From the sequence record MH051918: a stretch of 50,048 nt of DNA; one strand, written 5' to 3'. The translations under genes were made by a program, and so were the position numbers. This DNA comes from Escherichia phage vB_EcoS_IME347. Under the pieces are notes generated by a model. That model did no database searches and was not told the origin of the DNA. It saw only the letters and a program-made list of their open reading frames with translations. This document shows positions 1,754 through 49,879 of this stretch, in pieces (position 1 is the stretch's first letter; each line of letters starts with the position of its first letter).

Positions 1754-1860
1754 ATCCACTCGCTTTCGGCACGGCGATTTTCTTTCTGGCGACGGGGCAT
1801 TTTTGGCTGTTCATCGTCACCATGATCTTAATTGGCGCGGGAGCCTTTGACGATGATTAA
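1750..1860 (+). CDS. micro-ORF, 36 aa single-helix membrane peptide
   Basis: Hand-translated, below the track cutoff: MNPLAFGTAIFFLATGHFWLFIVTMILIGAGAFDDD. AAGGGGGA RBS 6 nt upstream. ATGA overlap with the upstream stop, and its end overlaps the next start. Confidence 0.6.
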   Translation: MNPLAFGTAIFFLATGHFWLFIVTMILIGAGAFDDD

Positions 1861-2053: not shown

Positions 2054-2250
2054 TGTACATTTTAACTGCTGTTCTGGTTCTGGTGATTCTGGTTCTGTAT
2101 GTGTGCGGCTGCTTCCTCATGCGGGCTTTCCTGCGGACGAATGACACAACCGATCAGGATAAGTGGAAGCCTGTCCTTACGTGGCCTGTCATCATGATTG
2201 ATGTTATTTGGGATTGTGCAATCAAAAACCACAAGAAATTTGAGTGGTAA
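2053..2250 (+). CDS. small membrane protein, 65 aa
   Basis: Track ORF with TAATG overlap. N-terminal hydrophobic helix ILTAVLVLVILVLYVCGCFL. Confidence 0.75.
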   Translation: MYILTAVLVLVILVLYVCGCFLMRAFLRTNDTTDQDKWKPVLTWPVIMIDVIWDCAIKNHKKFEW

Positions 2251-2294
2251 ATAGCACGAATAGCTAAACATGCCGGGCGGCAATCCGGCATAAT
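2251..2294 (+). promoter_or_regulatory. box/-10 promoter cassette
   Basis: Box ATAGCACGAATAGCTAAA. Inverted repeat GCCGG/CCGGC. 22 nt spacing to CATAAT (2289-2294). Confidence 0.6.
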
Positions 2295-2326
2295 GCAACC
2301 ACACCAAACGAAACGAGGAAAACGAA

Positions 2327-2584
2327 ATGACTCTCAACGAAGTGATCGAAATCATCTGTGGCTATGGCCTCCGCGCAAAACGCGAACTGCTGACTTGCGG
2401 CGCAACGCACGTAGCGATTGACGATAACGGCTCAATCTTCGCCTACAAAGGCGAGCCGCGCAACGACGACCCGGACGGTCAAGAGTGGTTGCCGGGACAC
2501 GGAGAGGGTGATCGCACTGTGATGTACTGCGGCGTGACCGAATATCCGGGCAACTGGAAAAGCTGCGTCTGGAAACTCCCGTAA
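2327..2584 (+). CDS. hypothetical small early protein, 85 aa
   Basis: Track ORF. Cassette 2251-2294 upstream, with a GAGGAAAA RBS. Confidence 0.8.
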   Translation: MTLNEVIEIICGYGLRAKRELLTCGATHVAIDDNGSIFAYKGEPRNDDPDGQEWLPGHGEGDRTVMYCGVTEYPGNWKSCVWKLP

Positions 2585-2628
2585 ATAGCACTTTTTGTTA
2601 AAACTGAATCTCGGGGCTGCGATATAGT
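2585..2628 (+). promoter_or_regulatory. box/-10 promoter cassette
   Basis: Box ATAGCACTTTTTGTTAAA. Inverted repeat GGGCT/AGCCC with TATAGT (2623-2628) in the loop. 22 nt spacing. Confidence 0.6.
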
Positions 2629-2658
2629 AGCCCTACACCAAACGAAGAGGGTAACACA

Positions 2659-2961
2659 ATGAAATTAGCACGTAGCGCAGTATTCGCAGTCGGCACGCAG
2701 GGCAATAAAAGCACTGCATTCCTGTACATTAACAGCAAGGGTGAAATCTCCCCGTTCTGGCGTAGCGAGTATCATGCGGACGGATGGAGCAAGCACGGCG
2801 AGCTTGACCTGATTTGCGGACAAAAGCCTATCAATCACGATCACTGGTACGGCATCGAACTTGACGGGGTGGAACGTGACATTACCATGATTCAATCGCA
2901 CGTTACCCGCGCTGAAGGTGTGGACTTTAAGCGAGCGCTGAAGTTCATCGGAAAGCACTAA
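2659..2961 (+). CDS. hypothetical early protein, 100 aa
   Basis: Track ORF. Cassette 2585-2628 upstream. The last codons (AAG CAC TAA) form part of box 2952-2969. Confidence 0.8.
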   Translation: MKLARSAVFAVGTQGNKSTAFLYINSKGEISPFWRSEYHADGWSKHGELDLICGQKPINHDHWYGIELDGVERDITMIQSHVTRAEGVDFKRALKFIGKH

Positions 2962-2996
2962 TTGTTAAAAGGGGGATTCATCCTGACTGGTATAAT
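2952..2996 (+). promoter_or_regulatory. box/-10 promoter cassette
   Basis: Box AAAGCACTAATTGTTAAA. Inverted repeat GGGGATT/AATCCCC. 23 nt spacing to TGgTATAAT (hexamer 2991-2996). Confidence 0.6.
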
Positions 2997-3027
2997 CCCC
3001 ACATCAACCAAGCGAGAGGAAAGCAGA

Positions 3028-3492
3028 ATGTTACGCAAAGAAGATATCACCTACCCAATCAGCTTCGTTAGCTTCGGAGTTGGCACCTTTACATTCACCA
3101 ACGAGAAAGGCGGCCACATGGTGTGCGCCAATGGCTACGAGCAACGCGAAATCGAATGCAGGGTGGGGGAATTTATAGAAAAAGCGAACAAGCACAACCC
3201 GGACAACGATCCTAAGCGTGACTACAACTACACGATGCCGGGCGCGGCGGCTGAGGTTAAGTCTGGTGAGTGCAGGGCTGAGTATATGCCAATCGGATCA
3301 ACTCTAACGGGCGTCCGCATGGATGATGGAGATTGGGCTGAACTGAGAATCACTCCTCGCCGGATTGAGGTTGATTCCGAGGTGATTACCTTCCTGCTGC
3401 ATGCGCACTACAGCACCAACACCAAGCAGTCACGTTTTGCCGGGGAAGTGAGCATGAAGCGCGATGCGATTGTTCGTTGGGAGAAGGCATAA
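3028..3492 (+). CDS. hypothetical early protein, 154 aa
   Basis: Track ORF 2962..3492 trimmed to ATG 3028, because 2952-2996 is a promoter cassette. GAGAGGAAAG RBS. Confidence 0.75.
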   Translation: MLRKEDITYPISFVSFGVGTFTFTNEKGGHMVCANGYEQREIECRVGEFIEKANKHNPDNDPKRDYNYTMPGAAAEVKSGECRAEYMPIGSTLTGVRMDDGDWAELRITPRRIEVDSEVITFLLHAHYSTNTKQSRFAGEVSMKRDAIVRWEKA

Positions 3493-3644
3493 TGGCAACT
3501 TGGTACTTAATCGCGATCACCTATTACGCCGGGGTTCAGCCGATCCCGTTCGACTCGCACAAGGCTTGCATTGATGCGCGAGAGGTAATCAAGAGAAACA
3601 ACCCGACAACCGCAAGCTTGCAGGTTGTATGCGTTAAGAAATAG
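3492..3644 (+). CDS. hypothetical small protein, 50 aa
   Basis: Hand-translated, below the track cutoff (MATWYLIAITYYAGVQPIPFDSHKAC...VCVKK). TAATG overlap. Its stop is the TAG of box 3641-3658. Confidence 0.6.
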   Translation: MATWYLIAITYYAGVQPIPFDSHKACIDAREVIKRNNPTTASLQVVCVKK

Positions 3645-3684
3645 CACGAATTGCTAAACCTTCCGCAAGGCCATTTGATATAGT
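3641..3684 (+). promoter_or_regulatory. box/-10 promoter cassette
   Basis: Box ATAGCACGAATTGCTAAA. Inverted repeat GGCCA/TGGCC (3669-3688). 22 nt spacing to TGaTATAGT (hexamer 3679-3684). Confidence 0.65.
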
Positions 3685-3724
3685 GGCCTTATTGAAGCAG
3701 AGCAACCAATCAGAGGCAATGACC

Positions 3725-3937
3725 ATGAAATTTTATCAAACGAGCCGTAACGCTGTTCTGAAATACTGGATTGAAAACGGCGTTGTGATGTGCAGCGGAA
3801 TGGCGGGCGAGCCGTTTAAGTCAGCAATGACCGTCGAAGATGTGGAATGGGCTGTCAGTCGCGGAATGATGGTTCCGGTTCAGAGCAACCCGTTCGACTA
3901 CTGGAATAAACTGAAGTCAGGGGATCTGTTTAAGTGA
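3725..3937 (+). CDS. hypothetical small early protein, 70 aa
   Basis: Track ORF 3683..3937 trimmed, because 3683-3718 is cassette and leader. ATG 3725 lies 8 nt after AGAGG. ATG 3719 is an alternative start. Confidence 0.7.
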   Translation: MKFYQTSRNAVLKYWIENGVVMCSGMAGEPFKSAMTVEDVEWAVSRGMMVPVQSNPFDYWNKLKSGDLFK

Positions 3938-4167
3938 TTATCGTCAACACCGAAACGGGCGAGGTCATGGATAACTGCATCGTTATCGACGACAAGCCCA
4001 AGCCGAAGAGCAAGGCAGGAACTTACGTTAGGACGGTCTGCAAGGCTCCCGGATGCGGGAATATTTACGAGGCGAAAGCCTCAGACCTGAAGCGCGGTTG
4101 GGGATTGACCTGCTGTAAGTCATGCGCAGCCGTGGTTCGCGAACTTAAAAAGAAAGGGCGTTGGTAA
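3934..4167 (+). CDS. small Cys-rich (putative Zn-binding) protein, 77 aa
   Basis: Track ORF. The GTG start overlaps the upstream TGA (GTGA). The motif CKAPGCG...CCKSC suggests a zinc ribbon. Confidence 0.6.
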   Translation: MIIVNTETGEVMDNCIVIDDKPKPKSKAGTYVRTVCKAPGCGNIYEAKASDLKRGWGLTCCKSCAAVVRELKKKGRW

Positions 4168-4355
4168 TGGAGCGTTTAAGCTACTGGCAGATACTGGATA
4201 AGGCCGGGCGACTGCGCGAGCAGCTTCGCGGGCTACCGGATAATGACCGAATGGAAATAATCGGTCGGGCGTTGCTGGATCTGGTTCACGGCGACGTGAC
4301 CTATCACTCATGCGGCAACGCACAATGGAACCTGACCTTTGAGGTGAAGAAATGA
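4167..4355 (+). CDS. hypothetical small protein, 62 aa
   Basis: Track ORF 4161.. trimmed to ATG 4167 (TAATG overlap with the upstream stop). Confidence 0.7.
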   Translation: MERLSYWQILDKAGRLREQLRGLPDNDRMEIIGRALLDLVHGDVTYHSCGNAQWNLTFEVKK

Positions 4356-4654
4356 ACAACTTGCACGAACTGAAGATTTTCCCGCGCCACTTCTACGGCG
4401 TGAAGATGGGGCAGAAGAAAGCAGAATTCAGGGTTGACGATCGCGGATTCAAAACTGGCGACACGCTCCGCCTTCGCGAATGGCACGAGGGCGACTTTAC
4501 CGGGCGGGAAATCAGCGTTGTGGTGACTGACGTAACCGACGTGACCGAGTTCATCAATCGGGCGAACGCCGAACTGTACAACGGGAACCGCTTCGTAATG
4601 CTGTCGTTCTTCGTGGTTCACGCGAGCCTTTGCGATATCCCGTACATCCGATAG
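4352..4654 (+). CDS. ASCH/DUF3850-like protein, 100 aa
   Basis: HELKIFPRHFYGVKMGQKKAEFRVDDRGFKTGDTLRLREW matches my memory of the DUF3850/ASCH N-terminal pattern. ATGA overlap. Its stop is the TAG of box 4651-4668. Confidence 0.65.
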   Translation: MNNLHELKIFPRHFYGVKMGQKKAEFRVDDRGFKTGDTLRLREWHEGDFTGREISVVVTDVTDVTEFINRANAELYNGNRFVMLSFFVVHASLCDIPYIR

Positions 4655-4694
4655 CACGAATTGCTAAAACAATAATCCGGGGCTATGCCATAAT
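4651..4694 (+). promoter_or_regulatory. box/-10 promoter cassette
   Basis: Box ATAGCACGAATTGCTAAA. Inverted repeat GGGGCTAT/ATAGCCCC. 22 nt spacing to TGcCATAAT (hexamer 4689-4694). Confidence 0.65.
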
Positions 4695-4725
4695 AGCCCC
4701 ACACCAAACGAAAGAGGAAGTAGAT

Positions 4726-5106
4726 ATGAAATTCAAATGCACAACCGACACAACGAAGAAATTCACTCCGGGCAAAGTCTACGAGACTTCGGCGAGCAAC
4801 GCACTTCACAACGTGGCTATCCGTGACGACTCCGGGCGGACTCGCGTATTTCGTGTAACTCATAACGGCGAAGGTATTCGCTGGAATGTCGGCGGCAATA
4901 AGTCTGCGGTTATGAAAAAGCTTCATCCTACCTTCCGCATCGACGAGTTGGGTACTGTCCATATCAGCGACGGCGAAGTAACCCGAGTCAAGATCGGCGG
5001 TTGGTGCGAGACTGCGGAATCTAAGCGCGAACGAATCACGAAAATCGCTATCGCGGCAACTCTGGTGCTGGTGAGTGTGGCTGTATTCGTGGCGAATCAC
5101 TTCTGA
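4726..5106 (+). CDS. hypothetical protein with C-terminal TM helix, 126 aa (KxKC family N-terminus)
   Basis: Track ORF 4630.. trimmed to ATG 4726, downstream of cassette 4651-4694. AGAGGAAG RBS. C-terminal helix IAIAATLVLVSVAVFV. Confidence 0.75.
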   Translation: MKFKCTTDTTKKFTPGKVYETSASNALHNVAIRDDSGRTRVFRVTHNGEGIRWNVGGNKSAVMKKLHPTFRIDELGTVHISDGEVTRVKIGGWCETAESKRERITKIAIAATLVLVSVAVFVANHF

Positions 5107-5154
5107 TTTAAAAGGGGAATCTCTCTGAGCGGTTCCCCATAACAAGGAATTCAA

Positions 5155-5280
5155 ATGGTAGACGTGAATCACTGGAATGAACCGCCAAAGCATGACGTTC
5201 TGTTTTGGTTTCTCGGGTTGCTGATAACGCTCGTTATCATCTTGAAAGGCGTGATGGTGGCGGAATGGATTCTGACCTGA
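5155..5280 (+). CDS. micro-ORF, 41 aa single-helix membrane peptide
   Basis: Hand-translated: MVDVNHWNEPPKHDVLFWFLGLLITLVIILKGVMVAEWILT. AAGGA RBS 6 nt upstream. Confidence 0.55.
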   Translation: MVDVNHWNEPPKHDVLFWFLGLLITLVIILKGVMVAEWILT

Positions 5281-5474
5281 TTAACTACGAAGATGCAGCG
5301 CGTGACGCTATCGATGGTATGCTGCCAAATTCGAAGCGTGTGGCTCACTATCGCGGTTTTAAGGGTTCACCTGTTAAACTGTATTGCGAGATTTTGAAGC
5401 TCTCAGAAGTCGATACAGCGCGTTTAGAGGCATACGATTTTAAGCGTTTTTCGATAACCATCGAAACCAAATAG
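5265..5474 (+). CDS. hypothetical small protein, 69 aa
   Basis: Track ORF 5205.. trimmed to ATG 5265 (MDSDLINYED...). Overlaps the end of the micro-ORF by 16 nt. Its stop is the TAG of box 5471-5488. Confidence 0.6.
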   Translation: MDSDLINYEDAARDAIDGMLPNSKRVAHYRGFKGSPVKLYCEILKLSEVDTARLEAYDFKRFSITIETK

Positions 5475-5514
5475 CACGAATTGCTAAAAACCTATCAGGG
5501 GAATGCGCTATGAT
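5471..5514 (+). promoter_or_regulatory. box/-10 promoter cassette
   Basis: Box ATAGCACGAATTGCTAAA. Inverted repeat GGGGAAT/ATTCCCC. 22 nt spacing to TATGAT (5509-5514). Confidence 0.6.
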
Positions 5515-5544
5515 TCCCCTACACCAACAAGCGAGGACGACAAA

Positions 5545-5976
5545 ATGAAACATCTGGTATGCATTGTAGAAGGTTGCGGCCTGGAAGGAATCGGCGGTGA
5601 ACTCGGTCACTACATGATCGCGAAGAATGACCAAGACCGAAGCGGCGACGTTGAGATAACCTCCCGCCACGCACTCCCTTACATCATGGAGACTCTCGGT
5701 GATGGAATGTATCAGGGTTATGGCTCCAGCGCTATTTACAAGCAATACCCGATCCGCAAGCGTCTGGTTCGCGCATTCTTTAAGTACGCGCATCACGATT
5801 GCAAGCTTTCACGCAATGCGGCGAAAAGTTGGGCGCGAGCTATGGCTGACGGATATTTCTTCCGTGATGGTCAGGCGATCAGCGAAATGATTCAGACAAT
5901 CATGATCGACTATGACGGCGATTTCGGTCAAGAGTCATTCGATAGCTACGTTGCCGACGAGATCTCTTACTGGTAA
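5545..5976 (+). CDS. hypothetical early protein, 143 aa
   Basis: Track ORF 5503.. trimmed to ATG 5545, downstream of cassette 5471-5514. Confidence 0.75.
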   Translation: MKHLVCIVEGCGLEGIGGELGHYMIAKNDQDRSGDVEITSRHALPYIMETLGDGMYQGYGSSAIYKQYPIRKRLVRAFFKYAHHDCKLSRNAAKSWARAMADGYFFRDGQAISEMIQTIMIDYDGDFGQESFDSYVADEISYW

Positions 5977-6020
5977 ATAGCACGAATTGCTAAAACTTGC
6001 TCAGGGGCATTTGTTATAGT
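5977..6020 (+). promoter_or_regulatory. box/-10 promoter cassette
   Basis: Box ATAGCACGAATTGCTAAA. Inverted repeat GGGGCA/TGTCCC (one G.T position). 22 nt spacing to TGtTATAGT (hexamer 6015-6020). Confidence 0.65.
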
Positions 6021-6059
6021 GTCCCTCGTTGAGTTAAGCAACCAATAAAGGAAAAAGCG

Positions 6060-6590
6060 ATGATTATCAACGCATACGGTAAAGAGTTTCACACAAACGC
6101 GCCTTCCGGCCTTGTCTGTATTTTCGACTACGACGGGACGCTTTCGGACGGTTCGCACCGACTTCACCTCCTGCCGAAGAAGGATTTACACCTCACTGAA
6201 AGCTGGAGCGAATTCAACCTTGCATCGGTGGACGACGCCCCGATCGAATCAACTATCAAGGTAATGAATGCGATGTATGCAGCCGGGCATTGTGTCATTA
6301 TTTTGACCGGACGCAGCGATGAAGTTGAAGCGGAATCCCGAGTTTGGTTAGATCGTCACGGCGCGAAGTATGACTTCATGATCATGCGTCGCCACGACGA
6401 CAACCGCAAAGACACGGTTATCAAAGAGGAAGTTCTCCGCGAGATCGGGTTGGAGCGAATCCTCGCGGCTTGGGACGATAGCCCTTCAGTTATTCCACAC
6501 TTTAGGAATATTGGAATAACTACATATGCCGTAACTGACTACGGCGACAACGTTCACGATCACCTTAAATCACACGGAGTAGAAAAATAA
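6060..6590 (+). CDS. HAD-superfamily phosphatase (nucleotidase / polynucleotide 3'-phosphatase-like), 176 aa
   Basis: HAD motif I in VCIFDYDGTLSD. ILTGR and a C-terminal WDD are consistent with motifs II-IV. Cassette 5977-6020 upstream. Confidence 0.65.
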   Translation: MIINAYGKEFHTNAPSGLVCIFDYDGTLSDGSHRLHLLPKKDLHLTESWSEFNLASVDDAPIESTIKVMNAMYAAGHCVIILTGRSDEVEAESRVWLDRHGAKYDFMIMRRHDDNRKDTVIKEEVLREIGLERILAAWDDSPSVIPHFRNIGITTYAVTDYGDNVHDHLKSHGVEK

Positions 6591-7174
6591 TGAGCAAAGT
6601 AATCATTCTCAACGCGCCGCCAGCATGTGGCAAAGACACGATAGGTTCAATCATCGCGGATATGAATCAGATTTATGGCGTTCGCATGTTGAGCTTCAAA
6701 GCGCCGATGTTCGAGATCGCCCGAGCTATCCTCGGTGATGCGAACTTTGATTATTTCATGTTCCTTTATAACGATCGGCTCCATAAGGAAAAGCCCGATT
6801 CCATTCTGAACGGTAAAAGCCCGCGCGAGTTCATGATCTGGATTAGCGAGGCAATCATTAAGCCAGAATTCGGCAATGATTATTTCGGGCGTCGAATGGT
6901 TGAGGCTGTCAAGTCAGGCACTGCCCCGGCGATTATCACGGACGGCGGATTCACTGAAGAGACAATCGCACTAATTGAAGCTGGTATTCAGGTTCACGTC
7001 TGCCGACTGCACCGCGACGGATTCACGTTTGAAGGCGACTCGCGAAACTATCTTCACCTGCCTGTGGGCTGGCAAGGCGTAAACGGCTACACCGAAGAAG
7101 ATTTCCAGTTACGTGACGGTGATCCTGATTACACTGCCAGCGTGATTACCGGGAAATACCTGCGTCACTTCTAA
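6590..7174 (+). CDS. P-loop kinase, dNMP-kinase-like, 194 aa
   Basis: Walker A in NAPPACGKDT. The overall pattern (GKDT...ITDGGFTEE...RDGD) recalls T4 gp1-type dNMP kinases. TAATG coupling to the HAD gene. Confidence 0.6.
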   Translation: MSKVIILNAPPACGKDTIGSIIADMNQIYGVRMLSFKAPMFEIARAILGDANFDYFMFLYNDRLHKEKPDSILNGKSPREFMIWISEAIIKPEFGNDYFGRRMVEAVKSGTAPAIITDGGFTEETIALIEAGIQVHVCRLHRDGFTFEGDSRNYLHLPVGWQGVNGYTEEDFQLRDGDPDYTASVITGKYLRHF

Positions 7175-7217
7175 TAGCACGAATTGCTAAAAACTCGGCG
7201 GGGTAAGCTGTTATAGT
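7174..7217 (+). promoter_or_regulatory. box/-10 promoter cassette
   Basis: Box ATAGCACGAATTGCTAAA. Inverted repeat GGGGTAA/TTACCCC. 22 nt spacing to TGtTATAGT (hexamer 7212-7217). Confidence 0.65.
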
Positions 7218-7253
7218 TACCCCATCGAAAACAACCAATCAGAGGAAACGCGA

Positions 7254-7439
7254 ATGATGCAAGTCACCAGCTACACCCAATCGACAGCCGAAGCAATCAG
7301 CGAACTTCGAAAGGTTGCCGACGCGCTGGAGAAAGGCGAGGCTATGCTTTATAGCGGATCAGTTACCAACACCAAGCGTTACGGCGAAGCCCGTGAATAC
7401 GCTATCGAAATCACAGTAGTCACCGATAAGGAGATGTAA
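7254..7439 (+). CDS. hypothetical small early protein, 61 aa
   Basis: Track ORF. Cassette 7174-7217 upstream, with the AACCAATCAGAGG leader. Confidence 0.75.
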   Translation: MMQVTSYTQSTAEAISELRKVADALEKGEAMLYSGSVTNTKRYGEAREYAIEITVVTDKEM

Positions 7440-7441
7440 AA

Positions 7442-7645
7442 ATGAGCAACACAATCAAACTTCGCACGACTCACGCCGATTGCCCTTGGATTACTCCGGG
7501 CAAGATTTACGAGGCCGAATTGGTTGCGAAAGATGGATTTGACGGACTGTATCGGCTGAAGAATCCAGACTTCGGAGAGGTGCTCACTGCAATTGAGAAC
7601 TCCTGTCATTTGGGCGGGGAAAGTTGGGAAGTAGTCACCGAATAG
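7442..7645 (+). CDS. hypothetical small protein, 67 aa (KxKC family-like)
   Basis: Track ORF with an AAGGAG RBS. Contains IKLRTTHADCPWITPGKIYEAE. Its stop is the TAG of box 7642-7659. Confidence 0.75.
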   Translation: MSNTIKLRTTHADCPWITPGKIYEAELVAKDGFDGLYRLKNPDFGEVLTAIENSCHLGGESWEVVTE

Positions 7646-7685
7646 CACGAATTGCTAAAAGTTCCGCAAGGGCATTTGATAGAAT
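7642..7685 (+). promoter_or_regulatory. box/-10 promoter cassette
   Basis: Box ATAGCACGAATTGCTAAA. Inverted repeat GGGCA/TGCCC. 22 nt spacing to TGaTAGAAT (hexamer 7680-7685). Confidence 0.65.
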
Positions 7686-9561: not shown

Positions 9562-9580
9562 ACGTCTGGAGTATGATAAA

Positions 9581-9598
9581 ATAGCACGAAATGTTAAA
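9581..9598 (+). promoter_or_regulatory. box copy in the terS leader
   Basis: ATAGCACGAAATGTTAAA lies between TGaTAAAAT (9574-9582) and the GGAGGA RBS. No -10 lies 22 nt downstream. Confidence 0.45.
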
Positions 9599-9614
9599 CA
9601 TCGGAGGACGTTTT

Positions 9615-16092: not shown

Positions 16093-16120
16093 TTGACGCT
16101 TTAACAAAAAGTGCTATCAT
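16093..16120 (+). promoter_or_regulatory. sigma70-like promoter TTGACG-16-TGcTATCAT (capsid gene)
   Basis: TTGACG at 16093-16098 and TATCAT at 16115-16120. The predicted +1 (~16127) lies inside the 5' arm of terminator 16121-16148. Confidence 0.55.
16100..16117 (-). promoter_or_regulatory. inverted box copy forming the spacer and TGn of the capsid promoter
   Basis: The plus strand reads TTTAACAAAAAGTGCTAT, embedded in TTGACG-16-TATCAT. Confidence 0.5.
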
Positions 16121-26056: not shown

Positions 26057-26065
26057 CTGTATAAT
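26057..26065 (+). promoter_or_regulatory. CTGTATAAT -10-like nonamer after a terminator
   Basis: Lies 4 nt after the T-run of terminator 26029-26053, upstream of the J-like gene. Confidence 0.4.
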
Positions 26066-26079
26066 GGCATCACCGATAA

Positions 26080-26097
26080 ATAGCACAAAAGGTTAAA
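26080..26097 (+). promoter_or_regulatory. box copy in the J-like gene leader
   Basis: ATAGCACAAAAGGTTAAA lies 14 nt after CTGTATAAT (26057-26065) and 4 nt before ATG 26102. Confidence 0.45.
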
Positions 26098-26101
26098 CAT
26101 C

Positions 26102-35798: not shown

Positions 35799-35816
35799 AT
35801 AGCACTAATTGCTAAG
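35799..35816 (+). promoter_or_regulatory. box copy between two leftward genes, abutting the tail fibre RBS
   Basis: ATAGCACTAATTGCTAAG on the plus strand. Read leftward, it is CTTAGCAATTAGTGCTAT followed by TTACTTGGAGG and the ATG. Confidence 0.4.
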
Positions 35817-35879
35817 CACCGATTTTATCATTGTGGTATGCGCCCGGCAATAGGGCAATAAAAAACCCGCCGAAGCGGG

Positions 35880-36873: not shown

Positions 36874-36900
36874 CTTTTGTGTTTTAGCTATTTGTGCTCT
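36857..36900 (-). promoter_or_regulatory. box/-10 promoter cassette (primase)
   Basis: Read on the minus strand: AGAGCACAAATAGCTAAA. 22 nt spacing to TAAACT. The hexamer lies in the loop of CGCGTA/TACGCG, which is followed by T6. Confidence 0.55.
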
Positions 36901-37327
36901 CGACTTCATCCTTTCGAACTACGCGCATGAACTTGCGGTTCTTGCATCGTTTTTCAAGGCACTTTCCGTTAGAGTCGAACTTGAGATCGAATCGCAGCCA
37001 GCTTGCGCGATACCCGGTACAACCCTGACGACGATACGCGCGATGCGCCGCCTCCGCTCCCTGCCAAGAAATCATGCCGCGAACTTTCCATTCGTTCACA
37101 TTCTGATTTGTTACCTTCAGGGCTTTCGCCGTGGCGGAGGGGGAGCCGTAGAATTCGATCAGGGCGTCAAGTCTGGCGCGTAGTCCGGCGCGAACCTCAT
37201 CTTTCAGGATGTAGAATCCGCATCGCTTGCGAGGCTTTACATCTTTGCCCCGTCGTGTACCATTGTTCCCGTTCAGGTGACGACGATCGATTTCCCCGGT
37301 TGATTCTGCAATACGCTTGATTGTCAT
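36884..37327 (-). CDS. HTH DNA-binding protein (YdaS/Cro-like) with basic Cys-containing C-terminus, 147 aa
   Basis: SATAKALKVTNQNVNEWKVRGMISWQGAEAAH resembles the YdaS/Cro-type HTH. Its last codons (AGC ACA AAT AGC TAA) form box 36883-36900. Confidence 0.55.
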   Translation of the reverse strand: MTIKRIAESTGEIDRRHLNGNNGTRRGKDVKPRKRCGFYILKDEVRAGLRARLDALIEFYGSPSATAKALKVTNQNVNEWKVRGMISWQGAEAAHRAYRRQGCTGYRASWLRFDLKFDSNGKCLEKRCKNRKFMRVVRKDEVESTNS

Positions 37328-37340
37328 AATAAATTCCTCA

Positions 37341-37383
37341 ATAGCACTTTTTGTTAAAACTAACTAATCGATGCGTGTATTAT
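37341..37383 (+). promoter_or_regulatory. box/-10 promoter cassette (helicase)
   Basis: Box ATAGCACTTTTTGTTAAA. 21 nt spacing to TATTAT (37378-37383). Inverted repeat GCGTG/CGCAC. Confidence 0.55.
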
Positions 37384-37387
37384 ACAG
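37379..37387 (-). promoter_or_regulatory. CTGTATAAT -10-like nonamer (leftward, HTH gene)
   Basis: Reverse complement of ATTATACAG. Overlaps the rightward TATTAT of the helicase cassette. Confidence 0.4.
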
Positions 37388-37420
37388 TCAACGCACGAGT
37401 AACGCAAAGGATTAAGAACA

Positions 37421-41173: not shown

Positions 41174-41438
41174 AGAATCTGGAAGGCAAGCCGTTTGGAG
41201 TCACGCAAAAGAAACGGGGCTGGCGGACGGGATCGCACTAATTGCTAAATACTTCGATATAAAAGACGTTAGTATTATCGGCAACGGGAAGATAACCTTC
41301 ATCGAAGAGCTTCCCCGGAAGTGCCACCGAGTCCCGGCAACTCCCGGACTTGAGTTTTACCGGGAGGAGGGTAAGCGAATCATGCAAGAATTTAAGGCGA
41401 GCAAAAATGACAAGAGAACTTCCCGGCTTAAACGGTAA
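41166..41438 (+). CDS. hypothetical small protein, 90 aa
   Basis: Track ORF with a GTG start that overlaps the upstream end by 8 nt. Contains an internal box/-10 cassette at 41232-41275. Confidence 0.55.
   Translation: MIKESGRQAVWSHAKETGLADGIALIAKYFDIKDVSIIGNGKITFIEELPRKCHRVPATPGLEFYREEGKRIMQEFKASKNDKRTSRLKR
41232..41275 (+). promoter_or_regulatory. box/-10 cassette located inside an ORF
   Basis: Box ATCGCACTAATTGCTAAA, encoded as GIALIAKY. 22 nt spacing to TAGTAT (41270-41275). No obvious inverted repeat. Confidence 0.4.
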
Positions 41439-41737: not shown

Positions 41738-42877
41738 ATGTCAATGTCAAAAATCACAACCGAACAGCTTATCGAAGAGCGCGAAAACGGCCTGACCCTT
41801 CGCGAGATCGCGGAGAAGTACGGGATGCATATCCGCACGGTTGAGGCTCGACACGCGAAGCTTGCAAAGGAAGGTCACTTCCACGGCAACAAGCACGTAG
41901 CCGCCAACGTTCCGACCGGGTTCGCCGTAAAAGGTACGTCCGTCATGATTGACGCCGAAGGCAACGAAAAGGTTCGCTGGGTTAAGACCGATCAGGACAA
42001 AGAGAAGATTTACCAACTCATGCAAGCGGCGCAGGTTGCATTTTGCGAAGAGTTGCCGCGCGAAGCCCCAACCCCGATCGAAATAAACAAGCGATTCGAC
42101 GAGGATTCGCTGGCGCTTTACCCGGTATTCGATCTTCATATCGGCGCACTGGCGCACAAGCACGAGTCCGGCGAGAACTACTCCACCGATATCGCGGAAG
42201 ATGTTCTGAACAAGTATTTCGGCTATGCAGTCGGCAAGGCTCCTAACGCACAAAAAGCCGTCCTGTTAATCGGCGGTGACTTCCTGCACTCTGACGGCCT
42301 TGACGCTGTTACCCCGGCAAGCGGTCATGTTCTGGATCAGGACTCGCGTTATGCCAAACTGGTTTACGTCGCAATCCGCGCTACTCGCCGGGCGATCGCT
42401 AAGATGCTGGAGAAACATGCTGAGGTTGAGGTTCAGATTATCGAAGGCAACCACGATCAGGCAGGTATGATTTGGCTACGCGCTGCAATGGCGGCATACT
42501 ACGAGGACGAGCCGCGCGTGAACGTTGACGTTAGCCCGATGATTCTGCACAAAACCCGTTGGGGCAAAACGCTGTTAGGCTACACTCACGGTCACACGAT
42601 GAAGAAAGCGGACACTCGCCTTGCAGCAATGGCGGCAGACTTCCGCGATGATTTCGGCGCGAGCAAGTACGTTTACACTCACAGCGGTCATTGGCATCAC
42701 CAGACGATCACCGAGCATACGTTGGGTATCGACGAGGTTCACGGTCAACTCGGGGCGAAGGATGCTTATGCGGCTCGCGGCGGCTGGCGAGCGTACCGTC
42801 AAGCGGCTGTTATCGTGTACTCAAAAGAGTTTGGCGAGATCGGGCGCTTTATCTACCGTCCAGAAATGACGGCGTAA
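41738..42877 (+). CDS. HTH + calcineurin-like metallophosphoesterase fusion, 379 aa
   Basis: N-terminal LTLREIAEKYGMHIRTVEARHAKL looks like an HTH. Phosphoesterase motifs DLHIG, GGDFLH, EGNHD, YTHGH and HSGHWHH follow. Confidence 0.7.
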   Translation: MSMSKITTEQLIEERENGLTLREIAEKYGMHIRTVEARHAKLAKEGHFHGNKHVAANVPTGFAVKGTSVMIDAEGNEKVRWVKTDQDKEKIYQLMQAAQVAFCEELPREAPTPIEINKRFDEDSLALYPVFDLHIGALAHKHESGENYSTDIAEDVLNKYFGYAVGKAPNAQKAVLLIGGDFLHSDGLDAVTPASGHVLDQDSRYAKLVYVAIRATRRAIAKMLEKHAEVEVQIIEGNHDQAGMIWLRAAMAAYYEDEPRVNVDVSPMILHKTRWGKTLLGYTHGHTMKKADTRLAAMAADFRDDFGASKYVYTHSGHWHHQTITEHTLGIDEVHGQLGAKDAYAARGGWRAYRQAAVIVYSKEFGEIGRFIYRPEMTA

Positions 42878-42922
42878 ATAGCACAAATAGCTAAAGACAA
42901 ATCAGGGGTAACGAGTTATAGT
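42878..42922 (+). promoter_or_regulatory. box/-10 promoter cassette
   Basis: Box ATAGCACAAATAGCTAAA. Inverted repeat GGGGTAA/TTACCCC (the same arms as the copy at 7201-7224). 23 nt spacing to TATAGT. Confidence 0.6.
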
Positions 42923-46594: not shown

Positions 46595-46638
46595 ATTATA
46601 CCCCGCCCATACTACACGCTTTTAGCTATTTGTGCCAT
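46595..46638 (-). promoter_or_regulatory. box/-10 promoter cassette
   Basis: Read on the minus strand: ATGGCACAAATAGCTAAA. Inverted repeat GGGGTA/TACCCC with TATAAT across the loop. 22 nt spacing. Drives the DUF3987-like gene. Confidence 0.6.
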
Positions 46639-46641
46639 TCG

Positions 46642-47058
46642 TTACAAGTATTTCGCTTCGAACGTTGTCCCGTCCGCGATGGAGAATCCCACCTCTTCGC
46701 GGAACAGAGTCCAGCGACATCCTTCGCTATCGAAGATGTACCCGGCGACGCCACCGAGCGCCCGACCACTTTCAACCTGATAGCGCTTGCCTACTTTGAA
46801 GGACTTCTTCATCGGATTCTTGTGATCAAGCCCGGTACACTTCAGGGTTTTCGTTTTCAACTCGGTGAACTTCGCAAAGTGTATTTCATCGACGTTGTGG
46901 ATCTGGAATTCGTCATGCTTTCCGAGCGGGTAAAACTTTCCGTCAGGGTGCTTTACTTCTCGCGTACCGTCGTCATGCTCGCGGCCTTTATACAGGTTGT
47001 TTGTTGTGAATCCGGTAACTGATTCCGCTGAAGTGCATTTCAGTTTGATAGTTTTCAT
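46642..47058 (-). CDS. hypothetical protein with two KxKC family repeats, 138 aa
   Basis: Track ORF. Contains IKLKCTSAE... and TLKCTGLD...KVGKRYQV. Cassette 47097-47140 upstream. Confidence 0.75.
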   Translation of the reverse strand: MKTIKLKCTSAESVTGFTTNNLYKGREHDDGTREVKHPDGKFYPLGKHDEFQIHNVDEIHFAKFTELKTKTLKCTGLDHKNPMKKSFKVGKRYQVESGRALGGVAGYIFDSEGCRWTLFREEVGFSIADGTTFEAKYL

Positions 47059-47096
47059 CGATTCATTCCTTCTGATTGGTTATCTTGAATAAGGCC

Positions 47097-47140
47097 ACTA
47101 TATCAAATGGCCTTACGGCAATATTAACAAATCGTGCTAT
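47097..47140 (-). promoter_or_regulatory. box/-10 promoter cassette
   Basis: Read on the minus strand: ATAGCACGATTTGTTAAT. GGCCAtttgatatagTGGCC is identical to the hairpin at 3669-3688. 22 nt spacing to TGaTATAGT. Confidence 0.65.
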
Positions 47141-47371
47141 TTACCAAGGAATATAATCCTTTCCCGGCTCCGAATCATCTTCGGCGGTCATAACGAAATT
47201 TGGATCGAATTCGCTTTCTGCATCCATATCCATTTCACCAAGAGCCTGTTCCAAGGTTAAATCCTGATACGCAACTTTGATACAATATTCGCGATTCAGT
47301 CCGGCATCCTGCGCAGTTAAAAAACGATGCCAGAAGTTATCATCATTATTTTTGCAAGGTGCATTGGTCAT
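47141..47371 (-). CDS. hypothetical acidic small protein, 76 aa
   Basis: Track ORF (GTG 47386) trimmed to ATG 47371, which lies 9 nt after GGAG. Confidence 0.65.
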   Translation of the reverse strand: MTNAPCKNNDDNFWHRFLTAQDAGLNREYCIKVAYQDLTLEQALGEMDMDAESEFDPNFVMTAEDDSEPGKDYIPW

Positions 47372-47376
47372 TTCGA

Positions 47377-47601
47377 TTAACTCCACGCATTGATGTAGAT
47401 TGAGTTTTCGACAAGCATCGCGCGGATATCCGGCATTGATGCATTTACCAGCTTTCCGCCCGGAATGGTCCCGACGATGTTATTTCCACGGGAACCTTTC
47501 GTTACGGTAATAACATTAAAGCCTGAAGCGCGATCCAGTTTGATGGTCACTTTGCCTTTTGCTTCGTAGTGCTTGATAATGCTATTTGCTTTAGAGTTCA
47601 T
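47377..47601 (-). CDS. hypothetical small protein, 74 aa
   Basis: Track ORF with an AAGGAAATAAAG RBS. Cassette 47641-47684 upstream. Confidence 0.75.
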   Translation of the reverse strand: MNSKANSIIKHYEAKGKVTIKLDRASGFNVITVTKGSRGNNIVGTIPGGKLVNASMPDIRAMLVENSIYINAWS

Positions 47602-47640
47602 CTTTATTTCCTTGTTTTGTCGTTTCGTTTCGATGGGGTG

Positions 47641-47684
47641 ATAATATCAAATCACCCCGAGGTTGTTTTAGCAATTCGTGCTAT
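47641..47684 (-). promoter_or_regulatory. box/-10 promoter cassette
   Basis: Read on the minus strand: ATAGCACGAATTGCTAAA. Inverted repeat GGGGTGA/TCACCCC. 22 nt spacing to TGaTATTAT. Confidence 0.65.
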
Positions 47685-47827
47685 TTTGAAATGCGATATT
47701 GCATTCCGCTCAAGTCCTCAGGCGACACCGAATAACACGGCTCCCAAGTTCCGTTGACCTTATTGTATTTGCGCACACCTCCAGCGATGCGATACATGCC
47801 GCCGTTATTGTCGTAATAAGTAATCAT
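47681..47827 (-). CDS. hypothetical small protein, 48 aa
   Basis: Hand-translated: MITYYDNNGGMYRIAGGVRKYNKVNGTWEPCYSVSPEDLSGMQYRISK. ATGA overlap with the upstream stop. Its own stop is the TAG of box 47667-47684. Confidence 0.6.
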   Translation of the reverse strand: MITYYDNNGGMYRIAGGVRKYNKVNGTWEPCYSVSPEDLSGMQYRISK

Positions 47828-48147
47828 TGCTTTCCGTCCCACGTCGTGTACATGGTGGACAATCGAACCTTATTCCGTTTCTTCATGTCCTCGTAGCCGT
47901 TGCTCTGCATTTCACGGAATCGAATGATTTCCTCTTTCGTTTCACGATCCGCAATTACGCGAGAGCTTGCACCATTCAGGAAAGCAACCCGGCTTAAATA
48001 GTCGGATCCGTACTTACGAACGCAAGCGGCAACGGTTCTCTCCATGATGTGGACTTGCAGATCCTTCGCGGCCTTCTCTACAGTATCCCCGATACTGCCG
48101 CCCCAGTGAACATCATGATTGACGCGCAACTCATAAACCTTGCTCAT
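47824..48147 (-). CDS. hypothetical protein, 107 aa
   Basis: Track ORF with ATGA overlap with the upstream gene and a GAGG RBS. Confidence 0.75.
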   Translation of the reverse strand: MSKVYELRVNHDVHWGGSIGDTVEKAAKDLQVHIMERTVAACVRKYGSDYLSRVAFLNGASSRVIADRETKEEIIRFREMQSNGYEDMKKRNKVRLSTMYTTWDGKQ

Positions 48148-48368
48148 AATTTAACCTCATTGAATTCGATGAAATCTTGGACATAGGCGCATTCTTTCGC
48201 GTCCTCTTGCCCGGTTAACACTTCACACCCGCCATTGAAGAGCAAGCAACCCGAGCACAAATTGCCGGGGAAATGCTCCTCAACAATCGCAATCCCGGTA
48301 CAACGTCCGCCGCCGAAACGGTGCGGGAAGTCATACGCGCGACAATTGCAGGTTACTTGCTTTCGCAT
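48144..48368 (-). CDS. Cys-rich small protein, 74 aa
   Basis: Track ORF. Contains CNCRAYDFPHRFGGGRC...CSGC...C. TAATG overlap. Confidence 0.7.
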   Translation of the reverse strand: MRKQVTCNCRAYDFPHRFGGGRCTGIAIVEEHFPGNLCSGCLLFNGGCEVLTGQEDAKECAYVQDFIEFNEVKL

Positions 48369-48556
48369 TATTCCGCCTCAGACACAATCACAGGCTCCAG
48401 CTTTTCAAGGCGAACCCGAAAGCTTTCCATGAAAGACTTGCGCTTGATTAAATCTTCGAAAGTCTCAACGGCGATTGATGCGCGATCTCCGCAATAACAG
48501 ACATTCTCTTTCCCGCTTTCTTTGCTGCGGGCAACTACCCGGTAAATTTTGCTCAC
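48368..48556 (-). CDS. hypothetical small protein, 62 aa
   Basis: Track ORF 48368..48604 trimmed to GTG 48556, which overlaps the upstream TGA (GTGA). GGGGAG lies 6 nt upstream. Confidence 0.6.
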   Translation of the reverse strand: MSKIYRVVARSKESGKENVCYCGDRASIAVETFEDLIKRKSFMESFRVRLEKLEPVIVSEAE

Positions 48557-48798
48557 TGCACTGGCTCCCCGTCTAACAAGATGAATACCGCTTCGATGAT
48601 GCATTGCGCTTTGGTCAGTGGCTGAACATCACGCCCGGCAATCTGCCACTTTTTGCCAGCGACGTGATTCACGGTTAAGCTTTTCCCGCCCCTGCACACG
48701 ATGAAATACTTCTGCTCCATCATGCCTTTGGTGTTTACCTCACCGACGACAACGCCATTATCCGTTGCGAAGTCGATCGCGTCAGTTACCTTGTTCAT
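48553..48798 (-). CDS. hypothetical small protein, 81 aa
   Basis: Track ORF with a GGAGATTAAGG RBS. Cassette 48833-48876 upstream. Confidence 0.75.
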   Translation of the reverse strand: MNKVTDAIDFATDNGVVVGEVNTKGMMEQKYFIVCRGGKSLTVNHVAGKKWQIAGRDVQPLTKAQCIIEAVFILLDGEPVQ

Positions 48799-48832
48799 TG
48801 CCTTAATCTCCGTGATTCGTTTCGATGGGGTA

Positions 48833-48876
48833 ATTATGCCAAACTACCCCGATCGCGTTTTAACAAAAAGTGCTAT
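48833..48876 (-). promoter_or_regulatory. box/-10 promoter cassette
   Basis: Read on the minus strand: ATAGCACTTTTTGTTAAA. Inverted repeat GGGGTA/TACCCC. 22 nt spacing to TGgCATAAT. Confidence 0.65.
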
Positions 48877-49194
48877 TTAGAGCGACTCTTCCAGAATTTG
48901 ACGGATGCGGTTGATTGCCTGTAACTTCATGAGATCCCACGAGTGAGATCCGGCGTTCGGTAATTCGTCAAACAGGTTGCTCACCATATCCGTGACCTGC
49001 TCAATACCGGCCTCTTTTGCAGCCTGTTCCAGTGTCGGCTCGGTGACGTCAATCCAGATACCGTCCTTAATGAATTTCGCGACAGGCGGACGATAGGCCA
49101 GTTCCATTTCGATCCCGTCCGCGCCCATAAGGAAGAAAGTCCCGTTGCGTTCGATGAAGTACATTTTCAGTTTGGTGTGGAAATACTTTTTCAT
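48877..49194 (-). CDS. hypothetical protein, 105 aa
   Basis: Track ORF. Its TAA abuts box 48859-48876. Confidence 0.75.
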   Translation of the reverse strand: MKKYFHTKLKMYFIERNGTFFLMGADGIEMELAYRPPVAKFIKDGIWIDVTEPTLEQAAKEAGIEQVTDMVSNLFDELPNAGSHSWDLMKLQAINRIRQILEESL

Positions 49195-49206
49195 GGTTAT
49201 TATTCC

Positions 49207-49437
49207 TTATGCAATGATGAATTTGAAAAGGTCTGCGCCGTAAGCCGTGCGAACAACACAACTCCACGCTGCGCGGCCTTCATGTCCGGAGTCAAGATTA
49301 ACCTGAATCTTAAAGCCAATGCGATCGGTCACGAATACTTTTCCGTCCTCGCGGGTTGCGGTGTACTGATTGCCGGAAACGAAAGCGGCATCACCGAGGG
49401 AGTTAGAAGCAAACACACAAATCATTTTCTTGGTCAT
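49207..49437 (-). CDS. hypothetical small protein, 76 aa
   Basis: Track ORF. Cassette 49472-49515 upstream, with the AACCAATCAGAGAG leader. Confidence 0.75.
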   Translation of the reverse strand: MTKKMICVFASNSLGDAAFVSGNQYTATREDGKVFVTDRIGFKIQVNLDSGHEGRAAWSCVVRTAYGADLFKFIIA

Positions 49438-49471
49438 TTTTGGGAAATCTCTCTGATTGGTTGATGTGTTA

Positions 49472-49515
49472 AGTATGCCCCGAATCCGATCAGGGCGTTT
49501 AGCAATTCGTGCGGT
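49472..49515 (-). promoter_or_regulatory. box/-10 promoter cassette
   Basis: Read on the minus strand: ACCGCACGAATTGCTAAA. Imperfect inverted repeat GCCCTG/CGGGGC. 22 nt spacing to CATACT. Confidence 0.55.
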
Positions 49516-49794
49516 TTAGATAGATTTCTTCGCAACCTTGTATGCTTCCTTGAAAGCCGGAACATCTTCGATTTCAATCCAGAAGCCGGAGCCATAACCA
49601 TCCTCATAGCAAGGGCACTGATCGCAATAGTCGCCCCAAGTTTTCTCAACGCCACCGATAGAAAACCCTGTGGACATTTCGCAAAGCGCTTCCTCTACAG
49701 CTTCGATCTTGTCGGCGTCGTTGTCCATGATTACAAAGTTCCACTTGCCGTTGTATTCAGTACCGAGTTTGATAGATTCGCGCTTGAGTTTCAT
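49516..49794 (-). CDS. hypothetical acidic small protein, 92 aa
   Basis: Track ORF with a GGAG RBS. Cassette 49836-49879 upstream. Its TAA abuts box 49498-49515. Confidence 0.75.
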   Translation of the reverse strand: MKLKRESIKLGTEYNGKWNFVIMDNDADKIEAVEEALCEMSTGFSIGGVEKTWGDYCDQCPCYEDGYGSGFWIEIEDVPAFKEAYKVAKKSI

Positions 49795-49835
49795 GAGTTG
49801 CTCCGTTGTTTTGTGTGCTTCGTTTCGATGAGTGT

Positions 49836-49879
49836 ATTATGCCAAACCAAGCCGATCGATGTTTAGCAAAAAGTGCTAT
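49836..49879 (-). promoter_or_regulatory. box/-10 promoter cassette
   Basis: Read on the minus strand: ATAGCACTTTTTGCTAAA. 22 nt spacing to TGgCATAAT. No clear inverted repeat. First leftward promoter of the right arm. Confidence 0.6.

Follow-up and report, generated by a model that had tools for sequence, protein, structure and literature searches.

The genome of Escherichia phage vB_EcoS_IME347 (sequence record MH051918; 50,048 nucleotides (nt), analysed at full length and hereafter called the window) carries a short repeated element, the box ATAGCACGAATTGCTAAA(A/C), at nearly all of its early promoters. We propose, with moderate confidence, that the functional reader of this box is a host activator of the antibiotic and stress responses, MarA, SoxS or Rob (or RamA). 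An earlier note on this DNA had argued that the geometry of the promoter cassettes implies a sequence-specific factor, and the analysis bears this out. It had named two phage proteins with a helix-turn-helix (HTH) motif, of 379 and 147 amino acids (aa), as candidates and had called a host factor equally possible. The host option stands, but no longer on equal terms: it is now the best supported and can be named, since the box agrees with the marbox, the site of these activators, in its sequence, its orientation and its spacing. The box can be explained without either of the two phage HTH proteins.

The window is the genome of a virulent T1-like phage (Drexlerviridae) of about 50 kb. The region around positions 41738-42877, where the 379-aa protein is encoded, shares 79.5% DNA identity with Escherichia phages BrunoManser and SRT8 (Drexlerviridae, Tunavirinae, Sertoctavirus), and phage T1 has the same gene order as the window. 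An exact overlap between the two ends of the window, by which it would wrap around on itself, was sought and none was found.

The box is present 25 times in the window with at most three mismatches, whereas 0.05 hits are expected. The marbox consensus of the E. coli mar/sox/rob regulators was used as AYNGCACNNWNNRYYAAAY, quoted as AYnGCACnnWnnRYYAAAY (PMC3709825), and the box agrees with it at every specified position. When one mismatch is allowed, 28 sites of the window match this consensus, where shuffled sequences give an expectation of 0.88 and no shuffle reached 28; eight of the sites are perfect matches. The main box also obeys the simple MarA/RamA rule CACG-N7-AAA. Sites matching the marbox consensus number 21 in T1, 24 in BrunoManser and 17 in the Klebsiella Webervirus phage Skenny, against 0 in Dhillonvirus, and the box was found in two more distant metagenomic relatives as well. 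The match to the marbox was confirmed in papers and in the E. coli genome. In strain MG1655, the marboxes of micF (ACAGCACTGAATGTCAAAAC), fumC (ATGGCACGAAAGACCAAAC) and mar (ATGCCACGTTTTGCTAAATC) are close to the phage box in sequence, that of mar being identical to it at 15 of 20 positions. The fumC site was used for its sequence only, its marbox being clear and its -10 element ambiguous.

The position of the box relative to the promoter is equally regular. Exactly 19 nt separate the 19-mer from the -10 element in 19 of the 27 cassettes of the window, and the same mode was obtained for T1 and Skenny. The boxes read toward the downstream gene, the start codon of which lies at a median distance of 77 nt. 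With start sites and box positions deduced from the -10 alone (taken as -12 to -7), the box spans approximately -50 to -31 and is centred near -41. Nothing resembling a -35 element is found at the proper distance. The earlier note had taken TTGCTA into a generic box; as a -35 hexamer this motif was ruled out, because it always lies 22 nt from the TATAAT-like hexamer. Boxes follow nearly every gene, and the stop codon of the upstream gene is found no more than 3 nt from the box start in 20 of the 27 cassettes (for example those at 969, 1234, 2251, 3641, 4651 and 42878), either as a TAA before or overlapping A1 or as the TAG of ATAGCAC. Elsewhere the box encodes the last residues of the upstream protein, STNS or STNC, with the stop codon. 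Because stop codons abut the box start or the box encodes these last residues, gene, box, -10, untranslated region (UTR) and next gene appear to be tightly butted modules.

An information profile was built from 84 cassettes of four genomes, selected on one half of the box only. All positions specified by the marbox consensus are conserved. The A-box ATAGCAC reaches 1.4-2.0 bits per position and the B-box TTGCTAAA 0.8-1.4 bits, with a variable A/T middle between them. Positions 16-21 read AAAAcn, and the -10 reads TAtaaT with invariant A2 and T6, these two having been selection criteria. A conserved G at -14 was found in 74 of the 84 cassettes, and T at -15 in 34 (a full TG in about 40%). Judged from sequence, such position-specific conservation on either side of a variable middle points to a protein that contacts two successive major grooves. 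Within the box, TAGCA-N5-TGCTA forms a 5-bp dyad with its centre near -42 and with two complementary conserved pairs (A3/T15 and A6/T12). Beyond it the conservation is asymmetric: C7, T11, A1, A17 and A18 have no symmetric partners, the left half is far more constrained, and the variants found alter the right half (TGTTA, AGCTA) with no matching change on the left. A MarA monomer forms an oriented, asymmetric complex with its site (PMC6900184). Loss of Rob affinity is 7- to 100-fold for A-box mutations and 2- to 4-fold for B-box mutations (PMC8279559); the stronger conservation of the A-box in the 84 cassettes mirrors these energetics, and the phage box resembles Rob marboxes in having an A-box more constrained than its B-box.

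Promoters of class II activated by MarA, SoxS, Rob or RamA have a forward site over the -35 region, centred near -41, no recognisable -35 and a normal -10 (PMC12052159, PMC10268841, PMC8811837). In their sequence the phage cassettes agree with such promoters in every respect, that is in consensus, in orientation, in overlap with the -35 region and in the lack of a -35 beside a normal -10, and so would qualify as class II marbox promoters. The cassettes and micF share the same asymmetric consensus in forward orientation, and both have AAAACA at the -35 position. At micF, the type class II promoter, 19 nt likewise separate the 19-mer from TAGAAT, with the activator site centred near -41. The phage sites differ from E. 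coli marboxes in being present in 20-28 copies per 50-kb virulent genome, in being near-identical rather than degenerate, and in being known here from sequence. Unlike the micF class, they have a stronger -10, a conserved G at -14 and a GC-rich hairpin in the spacer or around the -10; and unlike class II promoters, the phage genome also has the box in what would be repressor positions at late promoters.

The repeat itself was already known. A 2024 re-annotation of phage TLS described a 21-nt direct repeat, aaATAGCACnnnTTGnTAAAA, which runs in the direction of transcription some 76 nt from start codons and was also noted in T1, Rtp and Rogue1; its function was left open as a stoperator, an enhancer site or a UP-like element (PMC11447400). 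Its orientation and its distance to start codons are those of the window box, and the two are the same element. That study searched for pairs of -35 and -10 elements and obtained few sigma-70 promoters; the marbox reading and the class II geometry are absent from it (PMC11447400). In the literature searched we found no paper tying the marbox, MarA, SoxS or Rob to T1-like phages, and no relevant transcriptome or start-site data for these phages. What would be new is therefore the reading of the repeat as a class II marbox, together with its repressor-position copies at late promoters.

Boxes are distributed in the window as follows.

969..7660, plus strand: left early arm with ten forward boxes of at most one marbox mismatch (969, 1234, 2251, 2585, 3641, 4651, 5471, 5977, 7174, 7642), each followed after 19 nt by a TATAAT-like -10 and after about 77 nt by a start codon.
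46620..49879, minus strand: right early arm with five forward boxes (46620, 47666, 48858, 49497, 49861).
42878..42896, plus strand: box directly after the stop codon of the 379-aa gene, predicted promoter of the next small gene.
41232..41250, plus strand: box inside the open reading frame (ORF) 41166-41438, 19 nt before TAGTAT; nearest upstream box-promoter of the 379-aa gene, conserved in BrunoManser and T1.
9572..9599, plus strand: start of the small terminase gene (late operon), with TATGAT at 9572-9577 followed by a box at 9581-9599 (about -3 to +16), putative repressor type; conserved in T1 (8362).
16093..16120, plus strand: major-capsid promoter TTGACG-16-TATCAT, the spacer of which is filled by an inverted box (16099-16117, minus strand), putative repressor type; conserved in T1 (15068, minus strand).
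26058..26098, plus strand: tail-tip (J-like) gene with the extended -10 TGTATAAT and a box at 26080-26098 in the 5' UTR, across the ribosome-binding site; conserved in T1 (25021).
35799..35850, minus strand: tail-fibre promoter TTGCCG-17-TAAAAT with TG (35850..35822), followed by an inverted box (35799-35817, plus strand) at about +5 to +24; conserved in T1 (34902).

This distribution can be accommodated in a single mechanism. The box would be a class II marbox, the asymmetric 20-bp site of the monomeric two-HTH activators of the AraC family MarA, SoxS and Rob (RamA in Klebsiella). In about 20 early and middle cassettes it would stand forward in place of the missing -35, 19 nt upstream of a TATAAT-like -10 with a G at -14, and the host activator, present at infection, would recruit sigma-70 RNA polymerase to these cassettes. 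Rob is the constitutive member of the group. Where the box falls in the spacer or just past the start, as it does in the 5' UTR of the 147-aa gene and at the late promoters of small terminase, capsid, tail tip and tail fibre, it would be in a repressor position, and the same factor would hold the late genes down until titrated by replicating genomes or displaced. One factor would, in this proposal, switch early genes on and hold late genes off. The 147-aa protein may modulate the switch, by competing at the box or by binding an invariant 11-bp palindrome that lies over two -10 elements. Repression from the promoter spacer has a precedent, MarA, SoxS and Rob being described in the literature as repressing pbpG through a marbox in this place.

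A host reader accounts for several features together: a box that stays constant among phages of Escherichia, Klebsiella and their relatives, a complete match to the consensus with spacing identical to that of micF, and boxes on nearly all early promoters, since the factor would be there before any phage protein. As almost every early promoter of either arm depends on the box, the factor should pre-exist phage expression. Phages carrying the T1 gp23-type gene, which encodes the 147-aa protein, nearly all bear the names of Enterobacteriaceae hosts, and the exceptions resemble labelling errors. Enterobacteriaceae encode regulators of the MarA/SoxS/Rob type. Records named "Campylobacter phage" with T1-like genes were found 20 times among the matches to the gp23-type gene and 59 times among those to the 379-aa family, and one further record, "Streptococcus phage MBBL140", also has T1-like genes; with 60-65% identity to the window, these records look like T1-like coliphage contaminants or mislabelled entries.

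Several additional observations were made on the cassettes. About 20 of them have a GC-rich hairpin, placed either between the box and the -10 or around the latter, variable in sequence and conserved in pairing (for example 4670-4700, 32705-32735, 42897-42928 and, on the minus strand, 46582-46619), with a median of -13.4 kcal/mol and a median z of -3.6 against shuffled sequences. The T1 record calls these hairpins rho-independent terminators, most of them having no T-run on the coding strand; as new transcripts would begin directly after it, the hairpin would be present only in read-through RNA. Directly after the predicted start, 15 of the 27 cassettes have an A/C-rich motif, CATCGAAACGAAAC, ACACCAAACGAA or AACCAATCAG, also found in Skenny and L009 (examples at 1017-1035, 40950-40970 and, on the minus strand, 47610-47625 and 48800-48815), which may be an element of translation or stability. 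Between fumA and fumC in MG1655, the terminator hairpin of fumA is immediately followed by the marbox of fumC, and this succession of terminator and marbox recurs in the phage at the genes for the small terminase and the tail tip. On the minus strand, at 19863-19925 within the plus-strand late operon, a box with a properly spaced TG-extended -10 (TGATACAGT) points into the back of the terminator that follows the major tail gene, with a T1 counterpart at 18832 (minus strand); it could yield a short antisense RNA. Two near-consensus sigma-70 promoters have no box: TTGACT-17-TACAAT at 52-80 (plus strand), which heads the left early arm, and TTGACT-16-TATACT at 31552-31579 (plus strand), before a RecE-like exonuclease gene. 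Both could drive immediate-early transcription independently of the factor.

The 147-aa protein is the more serious of the two phage candidates. The elements of its gene and of the divergent promoter region next to it are the following.

36884..37327, minus strand: gene of the 147-aa Cro-fold regulator (T1 gp23 type, PHROG 2856), adjoining the primase gene.
37028..37201, minus strand: Cro-like all-alpha HTH domain of this protein, residues ~43-100.
37341..37359, plus strand: box of the helicase promoter (marbox-like), inverted relative to the 147-aa gene and invariant in six phages.
36882..36900, minus strand: box across the 147-aa stop codon, predicted promoter box of the primase gene, followed by a terminator-like hairpin.
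37376..37386, symmetric: perfect 11-bp palindrome TGTATTATACA with two face-to-face -10 elements, read from the sequence.
37402..37407, minus strand: -35-like TTGCGT of the 147-aa gene's own promoter, 17-nt spacer to TATAAT, read from the sequence.

The protein matches PHROG 2856, "transcriptional regulator" (E 6e-73), and has an all-alpha fold of the Cro/lambda-repressor type; its two Pfam matches are both below the curated thresholds (P22_Cro 21.7 against 30.2 bits, YdaS_toxin 20.4 against 30). The earlier note had described a Cro/YdaS-like HTH and a basic, Cys-containing tail. The HTH holds and the tail does not: the family has a sole invariant Cys, C128, in a structured C-terminal extension with no metal-binding motif, and its conserved basic stretch, NGNNGTRRGxDxKPRKR, is N-terminal. 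The invariant residues of the family are found in this N-terminal basic arm (D14, R16, N19-G20-N21, G23, R26, D29, R33) and in the C-terminal extension (predicted local distance difference test score, pLDDT, above 90), and do not include the recognition helix. The latter varies among genera (TNQNVNEW, SNQTVQGW, SIQVVQQW, SVGTVQQW, STQVVDQW). Six genomes with homologues that are 48-94% identical have the same box consensus; a constant box beside a variable recognition helix fits a conserved host reader.

The inverted copy of the box that had been noted at the start of this gene is there: a distance of 14 nt separates it from the ATG downstream (at 37327, on the opposite strand), which places it in the 5' UTR at about +14 to +32 of the predicted transcript. 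At the other end of the gene, the box at 36882-36900 encodes the C-terminus, STNS before the stop codon, and homologues often end in STNS, STKS or TTNS. The divergent region thus has two invariant elements, the box with its partial 5-bp dyad and the 11-bp palindrome over both -10s, which are TATTAT at 37378-37383 (plus strand) for the helicase and TATAAT at 37384-37379 (minus strand) for the 147-aa gene. The palindrome has a single exact copy in the window, and the sequence around it, GTGTATTATA, is invariant in six phages (window, T1, BrunoManser, Skenny, L007 and L009); it is a possible operator for the Cro-like protein. The 147-aa gene would have its own sigma-70-type promoter, TTGCGT-17-TATAAT, overlapping the helicase promoter and needing no box.

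The other candidate, the 379-aa protein, comprises the following elements.

41738..42877, plus strand: gene of the HTH and metallophosphoesterase protein (T1 gp16 type, PHROG 704, "DNA repair exonuclease").
41759..41869, plus strand: N-terminal three-helix HTH, residues 8-44, of the LuxR/GerE/sigma-70 region 4 type, predicted from an AlphaFold2 model and weak profile matches.
42098..42874, plus strand: metallophosphoesterase (calcineurin-like) catalytic domain, residues ~121-379, with five intact motifs, assigned from a 48-sequence alignment and fold matches.

Its match to PHROG 704 has an E-value of 2e-154, and its T1 counterpart is gp16. The AlphaFold2 model, computed from an alignment of 48 diverse homologues, has a mean pLDDT of 92 and shows three helices (8-16, 21-27 and 32-44) forming the HTH, followed by a beta-hairpin module and an alpha/beta sandwich. 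The N-terminal motif quoted in the earlier note, LTLREIAEKYGMHIRTVEARHAKL, falls within this HTH. Profile matches of the region are weak: HTH_23 at residues 13-36 (E 0.003) and Sigma70_r4_2 (E 0.018) in Pfam, and, with the family profile, GerE and RhlR (E ~0.04) and sigma-H. The five metallophosphoesterase motifs (DxH, GD, GNH[D/E], H, GHxH) are invariant in the 48 homologues, as residues D132, H134, G180-D181, N238-H239, H284, G317-H318 and H320, and the fold of the domain matches the nucleases Mre11, SbcD and DP1. The proposal of an N-terminal HTH joined to a full set of phosphoesterase motifs was therefore correct. The pairing is not unusual, as had been thought, but the standard architecture of PHROG 704: an exhaustive HMMER search gave 4,718 representative clusters, mostly of 370-420 aa, and the HTH-like region runs throughout the 48-homologue alignment. 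The family is found in 2,040 phage records, including Dhillonvirus, Jerseyvirus and phages of Vibrio, Rhodobacter, Rhizobium and Flavobacterium.

The sequence identity to Mre11/SbcD and to the exonuclease subunit DP1 of PolD is only 13-16%, and the phage protein has an additional N-terminal HTH and beta-hairpin module. Because its match to Pfam Metallophos stays under the threshold (14.6 bits, cut-off 21.5, E 0.046), the protein is not filed as Mre11 or SbcD proper but is a remote member of the superfamily. It is likely an HTH-tethered Mre11/SbcD/DP1-like nuclease of a very large phage family, with a role in DNA metabolism. A partner ATPase of the Rad50/SbcC type is not annotated in BrunoManser, T1 or Skenny, where annotations were consulted and no profile search was made. 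No box is found in the region upstream of the gene, where GTGTAGTATTC at 41670-41680 (plus strand) resembles the extended -10 of the helicase/regulator palindrome. In T1-like phages the gene lies directly ahead of the lysis genes, in Dhillonvirus mckay (35480-38357) between the lysis genes and the small terminase gene, and it always closes the DNA-metabolism block, perhaps a sign of a function close to packaging or in late DNA processing.

Whether one of these proteins, another phage product or RNA polymerase alone could account for the box was weighed against the host reading. The 147-aa protein might itself be the box-binding factor. Made first from its own promoter, it would sit as a dimer on the dyad near -42, activate through sigma region 4 as cI does at PRM, and use inverted or downstream boxes to repress the late promoters and its own gene. 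Lambda cI at OR2, a Cro/cI-type dimer centred near -42, activates PRM by contacting sigma region 4, and offers a precedent: the 147-aa protein has a Cro fold and the box dyad lies at the same place in promoters with a poor -35. The box-independent promoter, the invariant inverted box in the 5' UTR and the conserved complementary pairs of the inverted repeat all agree with this scheme, and so does the distribution of the gene, a core gene of the Drexlerviridae (823 records) that parallels the box. A scan of viral contigs for the exact 18-mer box returned almost only contigs of T1-like size and a few shorter fragments, which is expected under this scheme and does not separate a host from a phage factor. 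Nonetheless, the recognition helix changes among genera while the box is constant, and the family's invariant residues lie outside this helix. The box is asymmetric beyond its 5-bp dyad, with right-half variants uncompensated on the left, as for reading by a monomeric two-HTH protein, and differs from the lambda arrangement in that the phage is virulent, with no immunity region and no operator triplet. A dimeric reader would also make the full marbox match and the micF-identical spacing a coincidence. We therefore regard this protein as a legitimate candidate on account of its core-gene status, promoter and inverted box, as the earlier note had it, but as a rather unlikely reader. The 379-aa protein, by contrast, is most improbable as a transcription factor binding the box through its N-terminal HTH. 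The HTH is of a suitable LuxR/sigma-4 type and a box begins directly after the stop codon; the latter is uninformative because boxes follow nearly every gene. Its architecture is family-wide and extends well beyond the box-bearing Drexlerviridae. Dhillonvirus mckay, for example, has a full-length homologue, 46% identical and with a well-conserved HTH, yet the marbox consensus finds 0 sites in its genome. The intact catalytic motifs, the nuclease fold and the lack of a box upstream of its own gene further argue against the candidacy proposed earlier.

It is also unlikely that no dedicated factor exists, RNA polymerase acting alone through the -10 and the G at -14, and the box being kept as a UP-like contact for the alpha subunit or as a recombination junction for the shuffling of cassettes. 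The good -10 with its frequent G at -14 and T at -15 would allow it, stop codons close to the box start are what modular cassette boundaries would give, and UP-like elements are among the options listed by the TLS authors (PMC11447400). However, the box is not A/T-rich as UP elements are, GCAC being its most conserved part; a recombination junction requires neither a fixed 19 nt to the -10 nor placement in the spacer or downstream at late promoters; and position-specific conservation around a variable middle indicates protein contacts. An unrecognised phage protein, either a small early protein or one injected with the DNA, appears quite unlikely as well. Room for it exists, as the PHROGs matched by 20 small early ORFs, where there are any, are all of unknown function, and 10 of the 20 larger ORFs (at least 90 aa) have no Pfam match. 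Yet an early protein cannot activate the promoters that produce it, early gene sets vary among genera while the box is constant, and no two-HTH-like protein was found in the scans of the window. In these scans, Pfam gave no sigma factor, RNA polymerase or AraC-type domain among the 20 non-structural ORFs of at least 90 aa, in agreement with the earlier note, which had recognised no sigma factor or polymerase; none is listed in the annotations of the relatives either. MarA and SoxS, used as approximate query sequences in phmmer and hmmsearch against all six-frame segments of at least 30 aa, gave a best E of 0.4. NCBIfam returned nothing over its cut-offs, and PDB sequence searches with single proteins nothing significant. 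The absence of a detectable AraC-type two-HTH protein from the window ORFs argues against a phage-encoded reader.

Other known systems were compared or rejected as readers of the box. The sigma-54 consensus is TGGCAC-N5-TTGC; the box, TAGCACG-N2-TTGC, has an A for the first G of GG and a spacing 2 bp too short. A UP element would be an A/T-rich tract at -59 to -38, where the box has its most conserved part, GCAC, at -47 to -44. The T4 MotA box and sigma-32 do not fit in sequence or position. T4 middle promoters use sigma appropriation by AsiA together with a MotA box centred near -30. They resemble the cassettes in having a good -10, no -35 and a conserved upstream box containing TGCT; they differ in that the phage box is centred near -41 and the scanned ORFs have no Pfam transcription-factor match. 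The stoperators of mycobacteriophage L5, suggested for the TLS repeat (PMC11447400), are likewise many asymmetric sites along a genome, oriented with transcription, but they lie inside transcribed regions and work with a lysogenic repressor, whereas the phage boxes are mostly at a fixed distance upstream of a -10 in a virulent phage.

The host reading has its own difficulties. Unstressed laboratory cells contain little MarA or SoxS, and their Rob is for the most part inactive, yet T1-like phages grow well in them. The G at -14, conserved in many cassettes and part of a full TG in about 40%, might let these fire without an activator. The 5-bp dyad near -42 suits a Cro/cI-type dimer in lambda PRM geometry as well, the gp23-type gene and the box co-occur perfectly, and many small early proteins have no recognisable fold. 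Conservation at A3, T11, T12 and T15 goes beyond what the marbox consensus demands, although the mar marbox has T11, T12 and T15 as well. The consensus itself is degenerate and was chosen after comparison with about two dozen factor consensuses, so that the corrected chance of the match is roughly 1e-3 or less. A dual arrangement, with a host activator and the 147-aa protein as its competitor, would fit all data and is a speculation.

T1 belongs to the classical T phages; phages related to it often contaminate laboratories and are candidates for therapy. T1-like phages run their transcription programme without a polymerase or sigma factor of their own, and the 2024 re-annotation of TLS leaves the repeat unexplained. 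As members of known phage families, the 379-aa and 147-aa proteins are unremarkable. If the box is a marbox, the question of how these phages programme transcription would reduce to simple experiments with existing strains and proteins, and the cassette would provide a compact, portable promoter dependent on MarA, SoxS or Rob. Phage expression would then be coupled to the regulators of intrinsic antibiotic resistance, which predicts a phage yield dependent on stress and antibiotics and an altered phage susceptibility of mar, ram and sox resistance mutants. More tentatively, and with less confidence than for the reading of the box itself, all Drexlerviridae, including T1, TLS and the Klebsiella Weberviruses used in therapy, may have put both their early and middle promoters and late-promoter repression under the control of the host activators of stress response and multidrug resistance, MarA, SoxS, Rob or RamA; their development would be timed by titration or displacement of the host factor, with the gp23-type protein as competitor, and boosted by bile, salicylate, oxidants and mar or ram mutations.

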